Assembly (NCBI RefSeq): GCF_024502345.1
Contig: NZ_JALDNN010000001.1
Length of the DNA stretch: 64,000 bases
Source: Escherichia coli
GTDB lineage: Bacteria; Pseudomonadota; Gammaproteobacteria; Enterobacterales; Enterobacteriaceae
Strand: one strand, 5' to 3'
Positions within the stretch are counted from its first letter, which is position 1, and each line of letters opens with the position of its first letter. The position numbers were made by a program, and so were the translations under genes. Positions 7,312 to 22,834 of this stretch are shown here, in pieces. The notes under the pieces are model-generated. The model saw only the letters and a list, made by a program, of their open reading frames with translations, was not told the DNA's origin and made no database searches.

Positions 7312-8469
7312 GTGACTTATCTACGTATTAATCCTGTTCTGGCGCTGCTGCTGTTGCTGACGGCAATCGCAGCAGCGCTGCCGTTTATCAGCTACGCGCC
7401 TAATCGTTTAGTCTCGGGTGAAGGGCGTCATCTCTGGCAACTGTGGCCGCAAACGATCTGGATGCTGGTGGGCGTTGGTTGCGCCTGGCTGACAGCCTGT
7501 TTTATTCCCGCTAAAAAAGGCAGCATTTTTGCACTCATTCTGGCGCAATTCGTCTTCGTATTGCTGGTGTGGGGAGCTGGAAAGGCGGCGACCCAACTGG
7601 CGCAAAATGGCAGTGCGCTGGCGCGTACCAGCCTCGGCAGTGGTTTCTGGCTGGCTGCGGCGCTGGCATTGCTGGCCTGTAGCGATGCCATCCGCCGAAT
7701 CTCCACGCATCCGCTGTGGCGCTGGTTGTTGCATATGCAGATTGCCATTATTCCGCTGTGGTTGCTTTACTCCGGCACGCTTAACGATCTCTCGCTAATG
7801 AAAGAATACGCCAACCGTCAGGATGTGTTTGACGACGCGCTGGCTCAACATCTGACGTTGCTGTTTGGTGCGGTGCTGCCTGCGTTAGTGATTGGTGTGC
7901 CATTGGGCATCTGGTGCTACTTTTCCACCGCGCGGCAGGGGGCGATTTTTTCTCTGCTCAATGTCATTCAGACCGTGCCTTCGGTGGCGCTCTTTGGCCT
8001 GTTGATTGCGTCGCTTGCCGCGCTGGTGACGGCCTTTCCGTGGCTGGGGAAGCTCGGCATAGCAGGAACCGGAATGACACCCGCACTGATTGCGCTGGTG
8101 CTCTATGCCTTGCTGCCGCTGGTGCGCGGCGTGGTAGTAGGCTTGAACCAGATCCCGCGCGATGTGCTGGAGAGCGCCAGAGCGATGGGGATGAGCGGGG
8201 CGCAGCGATTCCTGCATGTTCAGTTACCGCTGGCGTTACCGGTATTTCTGCGCAGCCTGCGGGTGGTGATGGTGCAAACTGTAGGCATGGCGGTGATTGC
8301 GGCGTTAATCGGCGCAGGCGGTTTTGGTGCGCTGGTTTTCCAGGGGCTGCTAAGCAGCGCCATTGATTTAGTGTTGCTGGGGGTGATCCCGGTAATTGTT
8401 CTGGCGGTGCTGATCGATGCGCTGTTCGATTTACTTATCGCACTGTTGAAGGTGAAACGTAATGATTGA
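7312..8469 (+). CDS. yehY: ABC transporter permease
   Basis: 385 aa polytopic membrane protein, GTG start 7 bp after osmF stop. Confidence 0.85.
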
Positions 8470-9388
8470 ATTTAGCCATGTCAGCAAACTGTTTGGCGCA
8501 CAAAAAGCCGTTAACGATCTCAATCTCAATTTTCAGGAAGGGAGTTTTTCGGTGCTGATTGGCACATCTGGCTCCGGCAAATCCACCACCCTGAAAATGA
8601 TTAACCGCCTGGTGGAACATGACAGCGGAGAGATCCGCTTTGCCGGAGAAGAAATTCGCTCGCTGCCAGTACTGGAGTTGCGCCGCCGTATGGGCTATGC
8701 CATTCAATCTATTGGCCTGTTTCCCCACTGGAGCGTGGCACAAAACATTGCCACCGTGCCGCAATTACAAAAATGGTCGCGGGCGAGGATTGACGATCGT
8801 ATCGACGAATTAATGGCGCTACTGGGGCTGGAGTCAAATTTACGTGAGCGTTATCCGCATCAGCTTTCCGGTGGTCAGCAGCAACGTGTGGGAGTAGCGC
8901 GCGCACTGGCTGCCGATCCGCAAGTCTTACTGATGGATGAACCTTTTGGCGCACTGGACCCGGTAACGCGCGGCGCGTTGCAACAAGAGATGACGCGCAT
9001 TCACCGTTTGCTGGGGCGTACCATTGTGCTGGTCACTCATGATATTGATGAGGCGCTACGGCTGGCAGAACATCTGGTATTGATGGATCACGGTGAAGTG
9101 GTGCAGCAGGGGAATCCGCTGACGATGCTGACTCGTCCGGCGAATGATTTTGTCCGCCAGTTTTTTGGACGTAGTGAACTGGGTGTGCGCCTGCTTTCGT
9201 TACGTAGTGTGGCGGATTACGTGCGTCGCGAAGAACGGGCAGAAGGTGAGGCACTGGCAGAAGAGATGACGCTGCGCGATGCGCTCTCCCTGTTTGTCGC
9301 GCGGGGATGCGAGGTGCTGCCGGTGGTGAACACGCAGGGCCAGCCTAGCGGCACGCTGCATTTTCAGGATCTGCTGGAGGAGGCGTAA
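8462..9388 (+). CDS. yehX: ABC transporter ATP-binding protein
   Basis: Walker [13 protein letters not shown] signature LSGGQQQRV; 308 aa; overlaps yehY end. Confidence 0.9.
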
Positions 9389-9392
9389 GCGT

Positions 9393-10124
9393 ATGAAGAT
9401 GTTGCGCGATCCGCTGTTCTGGCTCATTGCTTTGTTTGTGGCACTGATTTTCTGGCTGCCTTACAGCCAGCCGCTGTTTGCTGCCTTGTTCCCACAACTG
9501 CCACGACCCGTTTATCAGCAAGAAAGTTTTGCCGCTCTGGCACTGGCTCATTTCTGGCTGGTGGGAATTTCGAGTTTGTTTGCGGTGATCATTGGTACTG
9601 GTGCCGGAATTGCTGTCACTCGCCCGTGGGGCGCGGAATTTCGCCCACTGGTGGAAACTATTGCCGCCGTTGGACAGACTTTTCCGCCCGTCGCAGTGCT
9701 GGCGATCGCCGTTCCGGTGATCGGGTTTGGTCTGCAACCAGCGATTATCGCCTTGATCCTTTACGGTGTGCTGCCCGTCCTGCAGGCGACACTTGCCGGG
9801 CTGGGAGCGATTGATGCCAGCGTGACAGAAGTTGCGAAAGGTATGGGAATGAGTCGTGGTCAGCGACTGCGTAAGGTCGAGCTACCGCTGGCGGCTCCGG
9901 TGATTCTGGCGGGCGTGCGAACTTCGGTGATTATCAACATTGGTACGGCGACGATCGCCTCAACGGTAGGGGCCAGCACGCTGGGTACGCCCATCATCAT
10001 CGGGCTTAGCGGATTTAATACCGCGTATGTGATCCAGGGGGCGTTACTGGTGGCACTGGCGGCGATCATCGCAGACCGCCTGTTTGAAAGGCTGGTGCAG
10101 GCGCTTAGCCAGCACGCAAAATAA
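9393..10124 (+). CDS. yehW: ABC transporter permease
   Basis: 243 aa membrane protein, 4 bp after yehX. Confidence 0.85.
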
Positions 10125-10212
10125 AGGTATAACCTGCGAGCATGACGCCACCAATTCCGCCTAACGCCATAAACAGGAACAGGGCGATGACCCCAATTTT
10201 AGCTATGCGCAT
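10105..10212 (-). CDS. yohO: small membrane protein (35 aa) [35 protein letters not shown]
   Basis: hand translation of minus strand; AAGGAG RBS 7 nt upstream of ATG; single TM helix; overlaps yehW 3' end; absent from ORF track (<60 aa). Confidence 0.75.
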
Positions 10213-10271
10213 AATGCACTCCTTATGTTAACGAAAGGATTGTACAGTAAAGCGCATTTGTTAACGAATCA

Positions 10272-11003
10272 TTAAATGCCGAGTGGGAAAATATCATAGC
10301 CTTGTTCTTGCCAACTGGTGAGTTGCTGTTGTTGGGCGGAGGTTCGATTTTCACCGCACCACACCAGCAATGTACGGCCTTCGAACAGTTCAGGGCGTAG
10401 TTGATTGAGCGAGTGGGCGAGGACATCAATGCGCCATCCTTGTTGACTGGCAATCCAGCCCTCCAGCCACAGACGGGTGGTATCGTGAATATTCCAGCCA
10501 ACCACCAGCGCATCTTTACCCTGTTTTTTACGTGCCGAAGCCAGACAGATGGCGATGTAGTTGATCAGTACGCCGTCGAGGATCGCCAGCAGCGCCTGGA
10601 GAGTCGGTTGTTGGCACTGAAGCCGTCGACGCAGAGGAATAAACAAATGCGTGGTGAGCGTCTGGGCGGGGTAATCCTGACCGCGCTCTTTGATCCACGT
10701 TCGCAGGCTATGCAGATTGCCGCTTTGCAAGTAAGTCAGTAATGTTTCTTGCTGATCGCGCCAGCCGTTCTGCACATCAACATTTTCATTACTGAGCAGC
10801 ATTTTAACTTTGCTGACCTGCACGCCGTTGTCGATCCAGCGTTTGATCTCGCGGATCCGGTCAATATCGGCATCGTTGAACAGCCGATGACCGCCGTCTG
10901 TCCGTTGCGGTTTCAGCAATCCGTAACGCCTCTGCCACGCGCGTAACGTGACAGGGTTAATATCACAAAGCAACGCCACTTCACCAATTGTGTAAAGCGC
11001 CAT
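10272..11003 (-). CDS. mlrA: MerR-family transcriptional regulator (csgD activator)
   Basis: 243 aa; N-terminal MerR HTH MALYTIGEVALLCDINPVTLRAWQRRYGLLKP. Confidence 0.9.
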   Translation of the reverse strand: MALYTIGEVALLCDINPVTLRAWQRRYGLLKPQRTDGGHRLFNDADIDRIREIKRWIDNGVQVSKVKMLLSNENVDVQNGWRDQQETLLTYLQSGNLHSLRTWIKERGQDYPAQTLTTHLFIPLRRRLQCQQPTLQALLAILDGVLINYIAICLASARKKQGKDALVVGWNIHDTTRLWLEGWIASQQGWRIDVLAHSLNQLRPELFEGRTLLVWCGENRTSAQQQQLTSWQEQGYDIFPLGI

Positions 11004-11224
11004 CGTCTCACCCTTGCTCGCGAGGTCCCGGTTTAACTTTAGACGCAGTTTTGCGAACCAGGTAGTTTTGCCCGTTTTTTGTGCATTTATAGGGTGATTT
11101 TATTTTTGCCAGGCGATTTTGAGTGATCGTACTCACGAATTCTCATTTTTCTGCAAGAGTTCAAAGAAAGTTAAACGCAGGCAATGTATGTTACGCGTTT
11201 TAAAGGGAAGTGTGGTTTGCGGGT

Positions 11225-12910
11225 ATGTACGATTTTAATCTAGTGTTGCTGCTGCTTCAGCAGATGTGCGTTTTTTTAGTCATTGCATGGTTAATGAGTA
11301 AAACGCCATTATTCATACCGTTAATGCAGGTCACGGTTCGTCTGCCGCATAAATTTCTCTGCTACATCGTCTTTTCCATCTTCTGCATCATGGGCACCTG
11401 GTTTGGGTTGCACATTGACGATTCTATTGCCAATACCCGTGCGATAGGCGCGGTAATGGGCGGCTTACTCGGCGGTCCGGTCGTCGGTGGGCTGGTTGGC
11501 CTGACCGGCGGGTTACATCGATATTCGATGGGGGGCATGACCGCGCTAAGTTGCATGATCTCGACCATCGTTGAAGGATTGCTCGGCGGCCTGGTACACA
11601 GCATCCTGATCCGTCGCGGGCGCACTGATAAAGTCTTTAACCCCATTACCGCCGGTGCCGTCACGTTCGTCGCTGAAATGGTGCAAATGTTGATCATCCT
11701 GGCGATCGCCCGACCTTATGAAGATGCGGTGCGTCTGGTGAGTAATATTGCTGCGCCAATGATGGTCACCAATACCGTCGGCGCGGCGCTGTTTATGCGT
11801 ATATTGCTCGATAAACGCGCGATGTTTGAAAAATACACTTCGGCTTTTTCTGCCACTGCGCTGAAAGTGGCTGCCTCGACGGAAGGCATTTTGCGCCAGG
11901 GGTTTAACGAAGTGAACAGCATGAAAGTGGCACAGGTGCTGTATCAGGAGCTGGATATTGGTGCAGTCGCGATTACCGATCGAGAGAAATTGCTGGCCTT
12001 TACCGGAATTGGTGACGACCACCATTTACCCGGCAAACCGATATCTTCGACTTACACCTTAAAAGCGATTGAAACCGGTGAAGTGGTCTACGCTGATGGC
12101 AACGAAGTACCTTATCGTTGCTCTTTGCATCCGCAATGCAAACTGGGGTCGACGCTGGTAATTCCGTTGCGTGGTGAAAATCAGCGGGTGATGGGCACCA
12201 TCAAATTGTATGAAGCCAAAAACCGTTTATTCAGTTCAATCAACCGCACGCTGGGCGAGGGGATTGCGCAACTGCTTTCGGCGCAGATCCTCGCCGGGCA
12301 ATATGAGCGGCAAAAAGCGATGCTCACCCAGTCAGAGATCAAACTGCTTCACGCCCAGGTGAACCCCCATTTTTTGTTTAATGCGCTTAACACCATTAAA
12401 GCGGTGATCCGTCGCGACAGCGAACAGGCCAGCCAGCTGGTGCAGTATCTTTCCACTTTTTTCCGCAAAAACTTAAAGCGGCCTTCGGAGTTTGTTACTC
12501 TCGCCGACGAAATTGAACATGTGAACGCTTATCTGCAAATTGAAAAGGCGCGCTTCCAGTCGCGGTTGCAGGTCAACATTGCTATTCCGCAAGAATTATC
12601 CCAGCAGCAATTGCCCGCGTTTACCCTGCAACCGATAGTGGAAAACGCCATTAAACATGGGACATCACAACTGCTGGATACAGGGCGAGTGGCAATCAGC
12701 GCCCGACGTGAGGGGCAACATTTGATGCTGGAGATCGAAGACAATGCCGGTTTGTATCAACCGGTAACCAATGCCAGTGGGCTGGGGATGAATCTGGTGG
12801 ATAAGCGTTTACGTGAACGGTTTGGCGATGACTATGGGATAAGCGTCGCCTGTGAGCCTGATAGTTACACCCGAATAACCTTACGACTACCATGGAGGGA
12901 CGAGGCATGA
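11225..12910 (+). CDS. btsS: LytS-type sensor histidine kinase
   Basis: ORF 11210..12910 trimmed to [13 protein letters not shown] (561 aa); 5TM-LytS N-terminus, GAF and HisKA_3/HATPase regions. Confidence 0.9.
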
Positions 12911-21477: not shown

Positions 21478-21528
21478 ATTATAACCACGGCTGGACCCCG
21501 TTGCAATTAAGATAATGAGATTTATAAT
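21478..21528. promoter_or_regulatory. divergent promoter pair sharing one palindromic -35 hexamer TTGCAA (copy 1)
   Basis: plus strand: TTGCAA-16 bp-TATAAT (21523..21528); minus strand: same TTGCAA-17 bp-TATAAT. Confidence 0.55.
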
Positions 21529-21709
21529 CCTGACTGTTGGGACGTTGCGCCGGATCGAACCTATTTCAAGTCCTGGCTACCGGACGGGGGGTGCTGCAGG
21601 TAGTGCCCTGATCCGGAGTGCAACATCGTGGTCCAACATACGTAAACCAGTATCGACAGGCAGTGTAAGGGTAAGGTGCTGGTGTTGCGCTCCTTAATAA
21701 GGAGAGCGG

Positions 21710-21799
21710 ATGGACTCGCTGACACAAAAGTTAACCGTGCTCATTGCTGTACTGGAGCTATTAGTGGCTCTGTTACGGTTGATTGATTTGTTGAAGTAA
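21710..21799 (+). CDS. type I toxin, 29 aa MDSLTQKLTVLIAVLELLVALLRLIDLLK (ZorO/ZorP-like)
   Basis: hand translation; GGAGAG RBS; single hydrophobic helix; ~174-nt leader from predicted TSS; near-identical copy 608 bp downstream. Confidence 0.7.
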   Translation: MDSLTQKLTVLIAVLELLVALLRLIDLLK

Positions 21800-21820
21800 C
21801 GGGCAAATTGAAACGCATCT

Positions 21821-21846
21821 AAGGGGGAAAACCGCTTCCCCCTTTA
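21821..21846 (+). terminator. intrinsic terminator of toxin mRNA copy 1
   Basis: GGGGGAA-loop-TTCCCCC hairpin followed by TTTAATAAA. Confidence 0.7.
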
Positions 21847-21995
21847 ATAAAATGATTACTGTTTTTATTAATTCATCATATAACTCATTTTTATTTATAA
21901 ATTCATCGATTTTATATTCAACGCACCATTTGACCGGGATGTGAATATTTATGTTGGGCTATTGGCAAAAAATATCTGGAAAGTAGATCGCAGAA

Positions 21996-22079
21996 AATAA
22001 AAAAACCTGCTGGTGAGGCAGGTTCTTTTATTTACTACAGTGACGCTAACTTGCTGATTGTGCAACATTTCGTACCAAC
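21996..22079 (-). ncRNA. candidate Orz-like antitoxin sRNA (copy 2)
   Basis: same promoter/terminator architecture as copy 1 (-35 22109..22114, -10 22086..22091, hairpin 22006..22022). Confidence 0.55.
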
Positions 22080-22085
22080 GAATAA

Positions 22086-22136
22086 ATTATATCCATATCC
22101 ACACTCCATTGCAATTCAGTGAGTGAGATTTATAAT
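22086..22136. promoter_or_regulatory. divergent promoter pair sharing palindromic TTGCAA (copy 2)
   Basis: TTGCAA 22109..22114; plus-strand TATAAT 22131..22136; minus-strand TATAAT (rc) 22086..22091. Confidence 0.55.
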
Positions 22137-22317
22137 CCTGCCCGTTGGGAGGTTGTGCCGGATCGGACCAATTTTAAGTCCTGGCTGCCGGACGGGTGGT
22201 GCCGCAGGCGGTGCCCTGATCCGGAGAGCAACGTTTCGTACCAACATACGTAAACCAGTATCAACAGGCAGTGTAAGGGTAAGGTGCTGGTGTTGCGCTC
22301 CTTAATAAGGAGAGCGG

Positions 22318-22407
22318 ATGGACACGCTGACACAAAAGTTAACCGTGCTCATTGCCGTACTGGAGTTATTAGTGGCTCTGTTACGGTTGATTGATTTGTT
22401 GAAGTAA
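22318..22407 (+). CDS. type I toxin, 29 aa MDTLTQKLTVLIAVLELLVALLRLIDLLK (ZorO/ZorP-like)
   Basis: hand translation; differs from copy 1 by S3T; same RBS and leader structure. Confidence 0.7.
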   Translation: MDTLTQKLTVLIAVLELLVALLRLIDLLK

Positions 22408-22428
22408 CGGGCAAATTGAAACGCATCT

Positions 22429-22454
22429 AAGGGGGAATACCGTTTCCCCCTTTA
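22429..22454 (+). terminator. intrinsic terminator of toxin mRNA copy 2
   Basis: GGGGGAA-loop-TTCCCCC hairpin + T-run. Confidence 0.7.
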
Positions 22455-22516
22455 AGAAAGCTATACTCGTCATACTTCAAGTTGCATGTGCTGCGACTTT
22501 AATTATCTAGAGTATA

Positions 22517-22834
22517 TTATTCTATTTCTTGGTTGAATATATTCTGTAGTTCACGATTAAAAATTGCTATTACAGTTTCAGGTGATTCACCTCGTAATTT
22601 CCGCTCATCAATACACTCATCTCTTATATAAATCAACGCATCATTTATTAGCGGGTCAGCATCTTCTCGATCACGTTGATGAAATGTTGGATGTAGCCGG
22701 AATCGCTCCAGTCGATAGACGGAACCTGTAAATAATTCAGAGCATTTATGGATCTCAAGTCTGAAGGAAAACGGATCTTCAGGTACAGGGACCTCATAAT
22801 CGTAAATAGCAACTAGCTCTTTTTGCACGATCAT
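22517..22834 (-). CDS. yehK: hypothetical protein YehK
   Basis: 105-aa ORF in syntenic position. Confidence 0.7.
   Translation of the reverse strand: MIVQKELVAIYDYEVPVPEDPFSFRLEIHKCSELFTGSVYRLERFRLHPTFHQRDREDADPLINDALIYIRDECIDERKLRGESPETVIAIFNRELQNIFNQEIE

Follow-up and report, generated by a model that had tools for sequence, protein, structure and literature searches.

The 35-codon reading frame convergent with yehW in Escherichia coli is yohO, a conserved gene for a predicted single-helix membrane protein

Identification of the reading frame

The 35-codon reading frame facing the 3′ end of yehW in the 64,000-nucleotide stretch of Escherichia coli DNA analyzed here (hereafter the window) is the already catalogued gene yohO, and it is not a new gene. 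That the feature is yohO, a translated gene for a single-pass membrane protein, is virtually certain. We also have high confidence in the wider explanation developed below, in which a strong ribosome-binding site drives translation of yohO to give a one-helix protein, the gene is probably transcribed from a promoter-like block of its own, and the helix may act by packing against a partner protein or against itself. The gene and its immediate neighbors are as follows.

10105..10212, minus strand: yohO, coding sequence of the single-pass membrane protein YohO (UPF0387), from the ORF, RefSeq, NF010225, and YOHO_ECOLI
9393..10124, plus strand: yehW, which encodes a 243-aa permease and closes the operon osmF-yehYXW of a glycine betaine ABC transporter, from the ORF and RefSeq
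10272..11003, minus strand: mlrA, gene for a MerR-family regulator, in the same orientation as yohO and ending 59 nt before it, from the ORF and annotation

Read from the window sequence, the frame runs from an ATG start codon (10210-10212) through 35 codons to a TAA stop codon, and its translation is exactly the one proposed in an earlier note on this DNA, which had been made from the sequence without database searches. RefSeq annotates "yohO: protein YohO" (WP_001216963.1) at identical coordinates, and yehW is likewise overlapped by 20 nt in that annotation. The NCBIfam equivalog NF010225 "protein YohO" matched with 80.1 bits against a cutoff of 57 (E = 8.8e-23), and the alignment is end to end, residues 1-35 of the protein pairing with profile positions 1-35 of 35. 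An exact-sequence look-up returned "UPF0387 membrane protein YohO" (YOHO_ECOLI), and more than 1000 contigs carry the identical protein. The gene that the earlier note had called "yohO-like" is, by the RefSeq record, the equivalog, and the exact match, yohO itself, and the comparison with known small proteins that the note had suggested thus gave both an exact match and a profile score above cutoff.

When the window gene is set against the YohO/UPF0387 family as represented by E. coli K-12 yohO, the sequence, the length, the position between mlrA and yehW, and the geometry of the overlap are all identical; no difference was found, the window protein being the type sequence. Of 5426 complete E. 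coli genomes, 5423 contain an 801-nt stretch around yohO. Homologs of YohO carry the precomputed Pfam label PF27791 UPF0387_membrane, and a Pfam profile search with YohO itself returned no family match; a sub-threshold match to B12D (Pfam) was considered and rejected as due to chance.

The gene order in this part of the window is yehY (7312-8469, plus), yehX (8462-9388, plus), yehW, yohO, mlrA, and btsS (ending at 12910, plus). The longest ORF for btsS starts at a GTG at 11210 (566 aa) and the RefSeq start lies 15 nt downstream (window position 11225, 561 aa), which is a matter of start-codon choice only.

As a discovery, yohO adds nothing, since virtually all E. coli genomes carry its annotation and both the annotation and the experimental detection of its product go back years. 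Its recovery is better regarded as a positive control, in that an unaided reader of the DNA found a real 35-codon gene lying below ORF-length cutoffs.

Evidence for a coding gene

One could read the feature as a chance open frame antisense to yehW, with no gene present, given that it is short and that 574 ATG-initiated ORFs of 20-50 aa arise by chance in the 64-kb window. However, a strong Shine-Dalgarno pentamer 4-9 nt upstream is found for only three of those 574 ORFs, yohO among them, and this signal is conserved in related loci. The match to a curated equivalog also speaks against chance, as do the comparative and published data that follow.

Via homologs of MlrA, we fetched 80 loci from Escherichia, Citrobacter, Salmonella, Enterobacter, Leclercia, Lelliottia, Kosakonia, Phytobacter, Pluralibacter, Buttiauxella, Cedecea, Atlantibacter, Franconibacter, Yokenella, and others. 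In every one of them (80/80), mlrA is closely followed by a YohO-like frame, which is intact in 79, where it begins with ATG, follows an (A/G)GGAG-type Shine-Dalgarno sequence, and encodes 35-37 aa. When all related loci are taken together, the frame is kept in 91 of 91 and intact in 90, across about 30 genera of the Enterobacteriaceae and Erwiniaceae. The earlier note had held that the gene would be refuted if no known small protein matched and if the frame were not conserved in relatives; the opposite was found on both counts.

The sole broken frame among the 80 is that of Citrobacter amalonaticus AUH_CA_2023_1 (L008:3793-3900), which has a frameshift in its N-terminal part, retains the reading frame for residues 12-35, and may reflect a sequencing or assembly error.

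The frame varies in the manner of a coding sequence. Over 79 distinct nucleotide sequences, the three codon positions have mean column entropies of 0.54 (position 1), 0.26 (position 2), and 1.18 (position 3); residues A16, G19, V23, and G27 are invariant in this 79-sequence set while each is encoded by four synonymous codons; and dN/dS is about 0.17 (Nei-Gojobori) over codons 2-28, all of which lie outside the yehW overlap. Judged by these substitution patterns, the YohO frame is under purifying selection. Only 20 of the 108 nt of yohO are antisense to yehW, and since the other 88 nt lie outside that gene, yehW cannot be the source of the coding-type conservation. The family is nonetheless a narrow one, for an exhaustive phmmer search yielded only 17 clusters at 50% identity, several to many of which are frameshifted or chimeric YohO variants.

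Expression of the protein is documented in published work. YohO was detected by top-down mass spectrometry (PMC12529367), and ribosome profiling, which the earlier note had suggested as a check, is represented by Ribo-seq coverage of the yohO frame displayed in a bioRxiv preprint (10.1101/2020.05.05.079178). The preprint also describes YohO as "membrane-bound", with Hemm et al. 2008 cited as the source. With the equivalog match, the conserved ribosome-binding site, the coding-type substitution pattern, and the published detection all against it, a chance frame has, in our judgment, practically no likelihood.

Linkage of yohO to yehW rather than mlrA

The two most divergent intact members of the YohO family were found in Shimwellia blattae and Mangrovibacter, and in these the gene upstream of yohO is not mlrA. 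In Shimwellia, its place is taken by a gene for a TonB-dependent receptor, and in Mangrovibacter, by metG or a gene for an ArsR-type regulator. In both, yohO still overlaps by 20 nt, in convergent orientation, the permease gene that closes an OpuAC/permease/ATPase/permease operon, which corresponds to osmF-yehYXW.

We extended the comparison through searches for homologs of YehW. With the E. coli protein as query, all matches listed had at least 78% identity, and with the Mangrovibacter protein as query, the search reached the Erwiniaceae. Among the lineages reached by these searches, in the Enterobacteriaceae and Erwiniaceae, no lineage with yehW but without yohO was found. Mixta (Erwiniaceae) has a 35-aa yohO ORF with a 20-nt yehW overlap, in Erwinia the ORF is 34 aa long and shares 14 nt with yehW, and Pantoea alhagi (CP019706.1, L092:3716-3823, minus strand) has a 35-aa YohO homolog, MNWQKFLVGTLFFIMAVGGTGGLMLVGYTIILHSR, with a 20-nt overlap, which is absent from the annotation. 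The arrangement of the genes is unchanged in these three. From these sequence comparisons, the YohO family extends into the Erwiniaceae and is under-annotated there, and the constant neighbor of yohO, as judged by gene order across the loci, is yehW and not mlrA.

The sole exception to this linkage is Escherichia sp. MOD1-EC7003 (L002:3789-4300), in which osmF-yehYX and most of yehW are deleted. The yehW homology breaks off about 75 nt after the stop codon of yohO, where REP-like sequence follows, while yohO is intact and differs by two synonymous changes only. The deletion may simply be recent, and it argues weakly against an obligate partnership between YohO and the transporter.

Transcription and translation signals upstream of yohO

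We examined the 130 nt upstream of yohO and aligned 22 diverse upstream regions (alignment A1). The elements recognized in the window are listed here.

10219..10224, minus strand: Shine-Dalgarno sequence AAGGAG, from the sequence and alignment A1
10226..10235, minus strand: second copy of TTCGTTAACA, 33 nt further downstream than the copy at 10259-10268 and between the -10 hexamer and the Shine-Dalgarno sequence, from the sequence and A1
10239..10244, minus strand: inferred promoter-like -10 hexamer TACAAT (TATAAT in most genera), from A1
10259..10268, minus strand: first copy of TTCGTTAACA, within the upstream block, from the sequence
10259..10275, minus strand: inverted repeat TTAATG-N3-C(A/G)TTAA followed by CA, over the mlrA stop codon, a candidate regulator site or weak -35 zone, from the sequence and its cross-genus conservation

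The earlier note had reported an AAGGAG ribosome-binding site at ideal spacing, and this motif indeed lies 6 nt before the ATG. An (A/G)GGAG-type motif occupies the matching position in nearly all related loci, with G70 of A1 invariant and the adjoining columns at least 90% conserved. Further upstream, the TA-A-T positions of the -10 hexamer (T47, A48, A50, and T52) are invariant in A1, and the hexamer belongs to a longer block conserved across genera, namely CATTTAATG-N3-CATTAACA, 14 nt, TATAAT, about 6 nt, and GTTAACA-(N)-AGGAG. The two copies of TTCGTTAACA flank the -10 hexamer in E. coli, and their core TTAACA is at least 90% conserved (A1 columns T61-A65). The repeat TTAATG-N3-CATTAA, at 10261-10275 in the window, is imperfect in E. 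coli. Sites of the MlrA, Fur, ArcA, and TorR types were considered for the upstream palindrome, and none was a convincing match.

Shimwellia and Mangrovibacter, in which other genes precede yohO, have the upstream block as well, and its retention there points to yohO having its own promoter; on this comparative ground, yohO is probably transcribed from a promoter just upstream of it. The -35 region is weak, the best candidate being TTCATT at 18 nt, and for this reason a consensus promoter scan missed the candidate.

Some loci depart from the common spacing. In the Citrobacter freundii group (L009, L010, L012-L015, L018, L019, and L023), the conserved TTAACA lies 8 bp closer to the -10 hexamer than it does elsewhere among the genera, so that TTAATA stands at a canonical 17-nt spacing from TACAAT. 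The spacers between mlrA and yohO measure 199 nt in L015 and 109 nt in L016, with the promoter block still adjoining yohO.

A terminator scan of the 59-nt spacer between mlrA and yohO (10213-10271) found no terminator-like hairpin, and the same scan near the yohO/yehW junction found only weak hairpins, probably due to chance, with none convincing for either gene. As a result, read-through from mlrA into yohO and mutual antisense transcription of yohO and yehW are both plausible; yohO may thus receive additional transcription from mlrA. Its transcript runs into the 3′ end of the convergent yehW. Two further published data sets mention this locus. In an anaerobiosis-response table for Shigella flexneri, yohO is given a log2FC of -2.96 in a column that, by analogous headings, appears to compare the wild type without O2 to the wild type with O2 (PMC4229854), and a genomic SELEX peak of a minor sigma factor lies inside yehW, beside yohO (PMC5493296).

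The overlap of yohO and yehW

The two coding sequences share the following stretch, which was defined by the coordinates of both genes and compared in related loci.

10105..10124, both strands: convergent coding-sequence overlap of yohO and yehW, 20 nt

The earlier note had estimated that about the last six codons of yohO overlap yehW, in good agreement with the 20 nt observed, which comprise the stop codon, the last five codons, and 2 nt of codon 30. From the coordinates, codon positions 1, 2, and 3 of yohO lie opposite positions 1, 3, and 2 of yehW. The overlap measures 20, 23, 26, or 14 nt in 87 of the 88 loci scored. In the 20-nt class, mean per-site entropy is 0.72 for the YohO tail as opposed to 1.25 for the YehW tail, and in the 26-nt class, the corresponding values are 0.11 and 0.75. 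Going by these entropies, selection within the shared nucleotides favors the frame of YohO over that of YehW.

Since the coding sequences overlap, the mature mRNAs of yohO and yehW must overlap by at least 20 nt, and the arrangement could matter primarily at the level of RNA. The locus would then be a convergent excludon, a concept said to go back to Sesto et al. in 2013, in which yohO (with mlrA) and osmF-yehYXW oppose each other through transcriptional interference, RNase III-sensitive double-stranded RNA, or both, such that strong expression on either side would reduce the other, with the protein secondary. Consistent with this, the junction combines a coding-sequence overlap with the lack of a convincing intrinsic terminator for either gene, and an overlap of 14-26 nt is conserved across two bacterial families. 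The transcript overlap of yohO and yehW has already been published as an excludon, being among 165 convergent excludons that ExcludonFinder detected in no fewer than 50% of 58 RNA-seq samples of MG1655 (PMC12288877).

The locus resembles other convergent excludons in its convergent, overlapping transcripts and in its place in this E. coli excludome. Unlike in the usual case, the coding sequences themselves overlap and not the UTRs only, and mutually exclusive expression is putative for this pair, which is one entry in the list of PMC12288877. Moreover, an RNA-level role gives no account of the purifying selection on YohO outside the overlap, with its low dN/dS and turnover of synonymous codons, nor of the YohO tail being better conserved than the YehW tail. 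We therefore consider it rather unlikely, though not negligibly so, that the excludon is the primary role with the protein secondary. The excludon reading and the protein-level explanation can coexist, and it is the latter, a conserved membrane protein with a proposed packing helix, that we pursue below.

Predicted structure and properties of YohO

The single transmembrane helix proposed in the earlier note is borne out by prediction. The best 19-residue Kyte-Doolittle window scores 2.41, the GRAVY value of the protein is 1.58, and AlphaFold2, run with a 24-sequence alignment, predicts one helix spanning residues 4-34 with a mean pLDDT of 86. No chain matching YohO was found in the PDB. Asp and Glu are absent from all 50 unique YohO homologs. 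The basic residues number one or two at the N-terminus, usually with one Arg or His near the C-terminus, and Lys and Arg together average 1.7 in the N-terminal six residues as opposed to 0.7 in the C-terminal tail. Membrane orientation can be read from the distribution of basic residues by the positive-inside rule, which here weakly suggests that the N-terminus is inside and the C-terminus outside.

A small and very hydrophobic protein with a strong Shine-Dalgarno sequence and an overlapping antisense transcript could also be a type I toxin-like peptide whose synthesis is repressed by the yehW transcript through its antisense 3′ end. Type I toxins, however, typically have a patchy, multi-copy distribution, whereas yohO is a single-copy gene that has been inherited vertically and keeps the same position in about 30 genera. 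Its antisense overlap involves the 3′ end and not the ribosome-binding site or 5′ UTR, and an Rfam search of 9300-11300 matched no family, so that neither an Rfam family nor a dedicated antisense sRNA was found in this region. Lacking both an sRNA over the 5′ UTR or ribosome-binding site and a patchy or multi-copy distribution, yohO is unlikely to belong to a type I toxin-antitoxin system. The native protein is also detectable by mass spectrometry in ordinary cultures. Finally, an ASKA clone of yohO grew when induced with IPTG in an Ala-Ala resistance screen, where it was selected in round one but not retained in round two (PMC10299036), and overexpression of YohO is thus tolerated. Overall, we judge the toxin reading to be very improbable.

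The conservation along the helix offers a clue to how YohO may act. In the 24-sequence alignment, M1, G19, G22, M24, L25, G27, Y28, and I31 are invariant, and K5, M15, A16, I20, and V23 are at least 90% conserved. The most conserved part of the protein is the mid-helix core M-A-x-(G/S)-G-I-(G/S)-G-V-M-L-x-G-Y, and small residues of the helix occupy positions 18, 19, 22, 26, and 27. These residues form a surface of the small-xxx-small kind, which mediates close helix-helix packing in membrane proteins, and the pattern of selection on the glycine-rich mid-helix face makes such packing the most economical mechanism. In the proposed sequence of events, YohO would be made from its strong ribosome-binding site and form a single transmembrane helix, which would then pack in the inner membrane, either by self-association or by binding a larger membrane protein. 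On whether tight helix-helix packing is the mode of action of YohO, as it is for other bacterial small membrane proteins, we are evenly divided.

Candidate partners of YohO

Our literature search found no functional study of YohO and no paper assigning it a function. If the helix binds a larger membrane protein, the first candidate would be YehW/YehY, the permease of the glycine betaine ABC transporter OsmF-YehYXW, since no neighbor other than yehW is kept in every lineage. This linkage may be purely mechanical, however, as overlapping genes cannot be separated without truncating one of them, and we regard YehW/YehY as an unlikely partner.

Several small proteins set a precedent for such a role. 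KdpF (of KdpFABC), AcrZ (of AcrB), MgtS (of MgtA), and CydX (of cytochrome bd) are single-helix accessory or regulatory proteins of membrane complexes. YohO appears comparable to these in its length of about 30-50 aa, its one predicted transmembrane helix, its restricted taxonomic range, and its conserved adjacency to a transporter gene, a likeness that serves as a working analogy and is drawn from genomic linkage to yehW. In contrast to kdpF within kdpFABC, yohO is convergent with the transporter operon and not co-transcribed with it, and unlike accessory subunits, it persists in one genome (Escherichia sp. MOD1-EC7003) after loss of the transporter genes. The broader proposition that YohO is tied to OsmF-YehYXW, either as a dedicated small subunit or regulator of YehW/YehY or through an overlap that would act, in the manner of an excludon, as a switch between mlrA-yohO on one side and the transporter operon on the other, likewise seems to us unlikely.

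The comparative results provide a first functional hypothesis for YohO along with targets for mutagenesis, namely the linkage to yehW, the private promoter block, the glycine-rich face of the helix, and the tail of YohO.

Tandem small ORFs elsewhere in the window

Apart from yohO, just two small ORFs of the window have a strong Shine-Dalgarno sequence. They are tandem, near-identical, and hydrophobic, encode 29 aa each, and have AGGAG 5 nt before the ATG.

21710-21799, plus strand: first 29-aa ORF, MDSLTQKLTVLIAVLELLVALLRLIDLLK
22318-22407, plus strand: second 29-aa ORF, MDTLTQKLTVLIAVLELLVALLRLIDLLK

Among RefSeq records matching window positions 21500-22600, yehK alone is annotated under the match, and parts of this region recur about five times per genome. 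The two ORFs may be similar to ZorO/ZorP, which are type I toxins of pathogenic E. coli.
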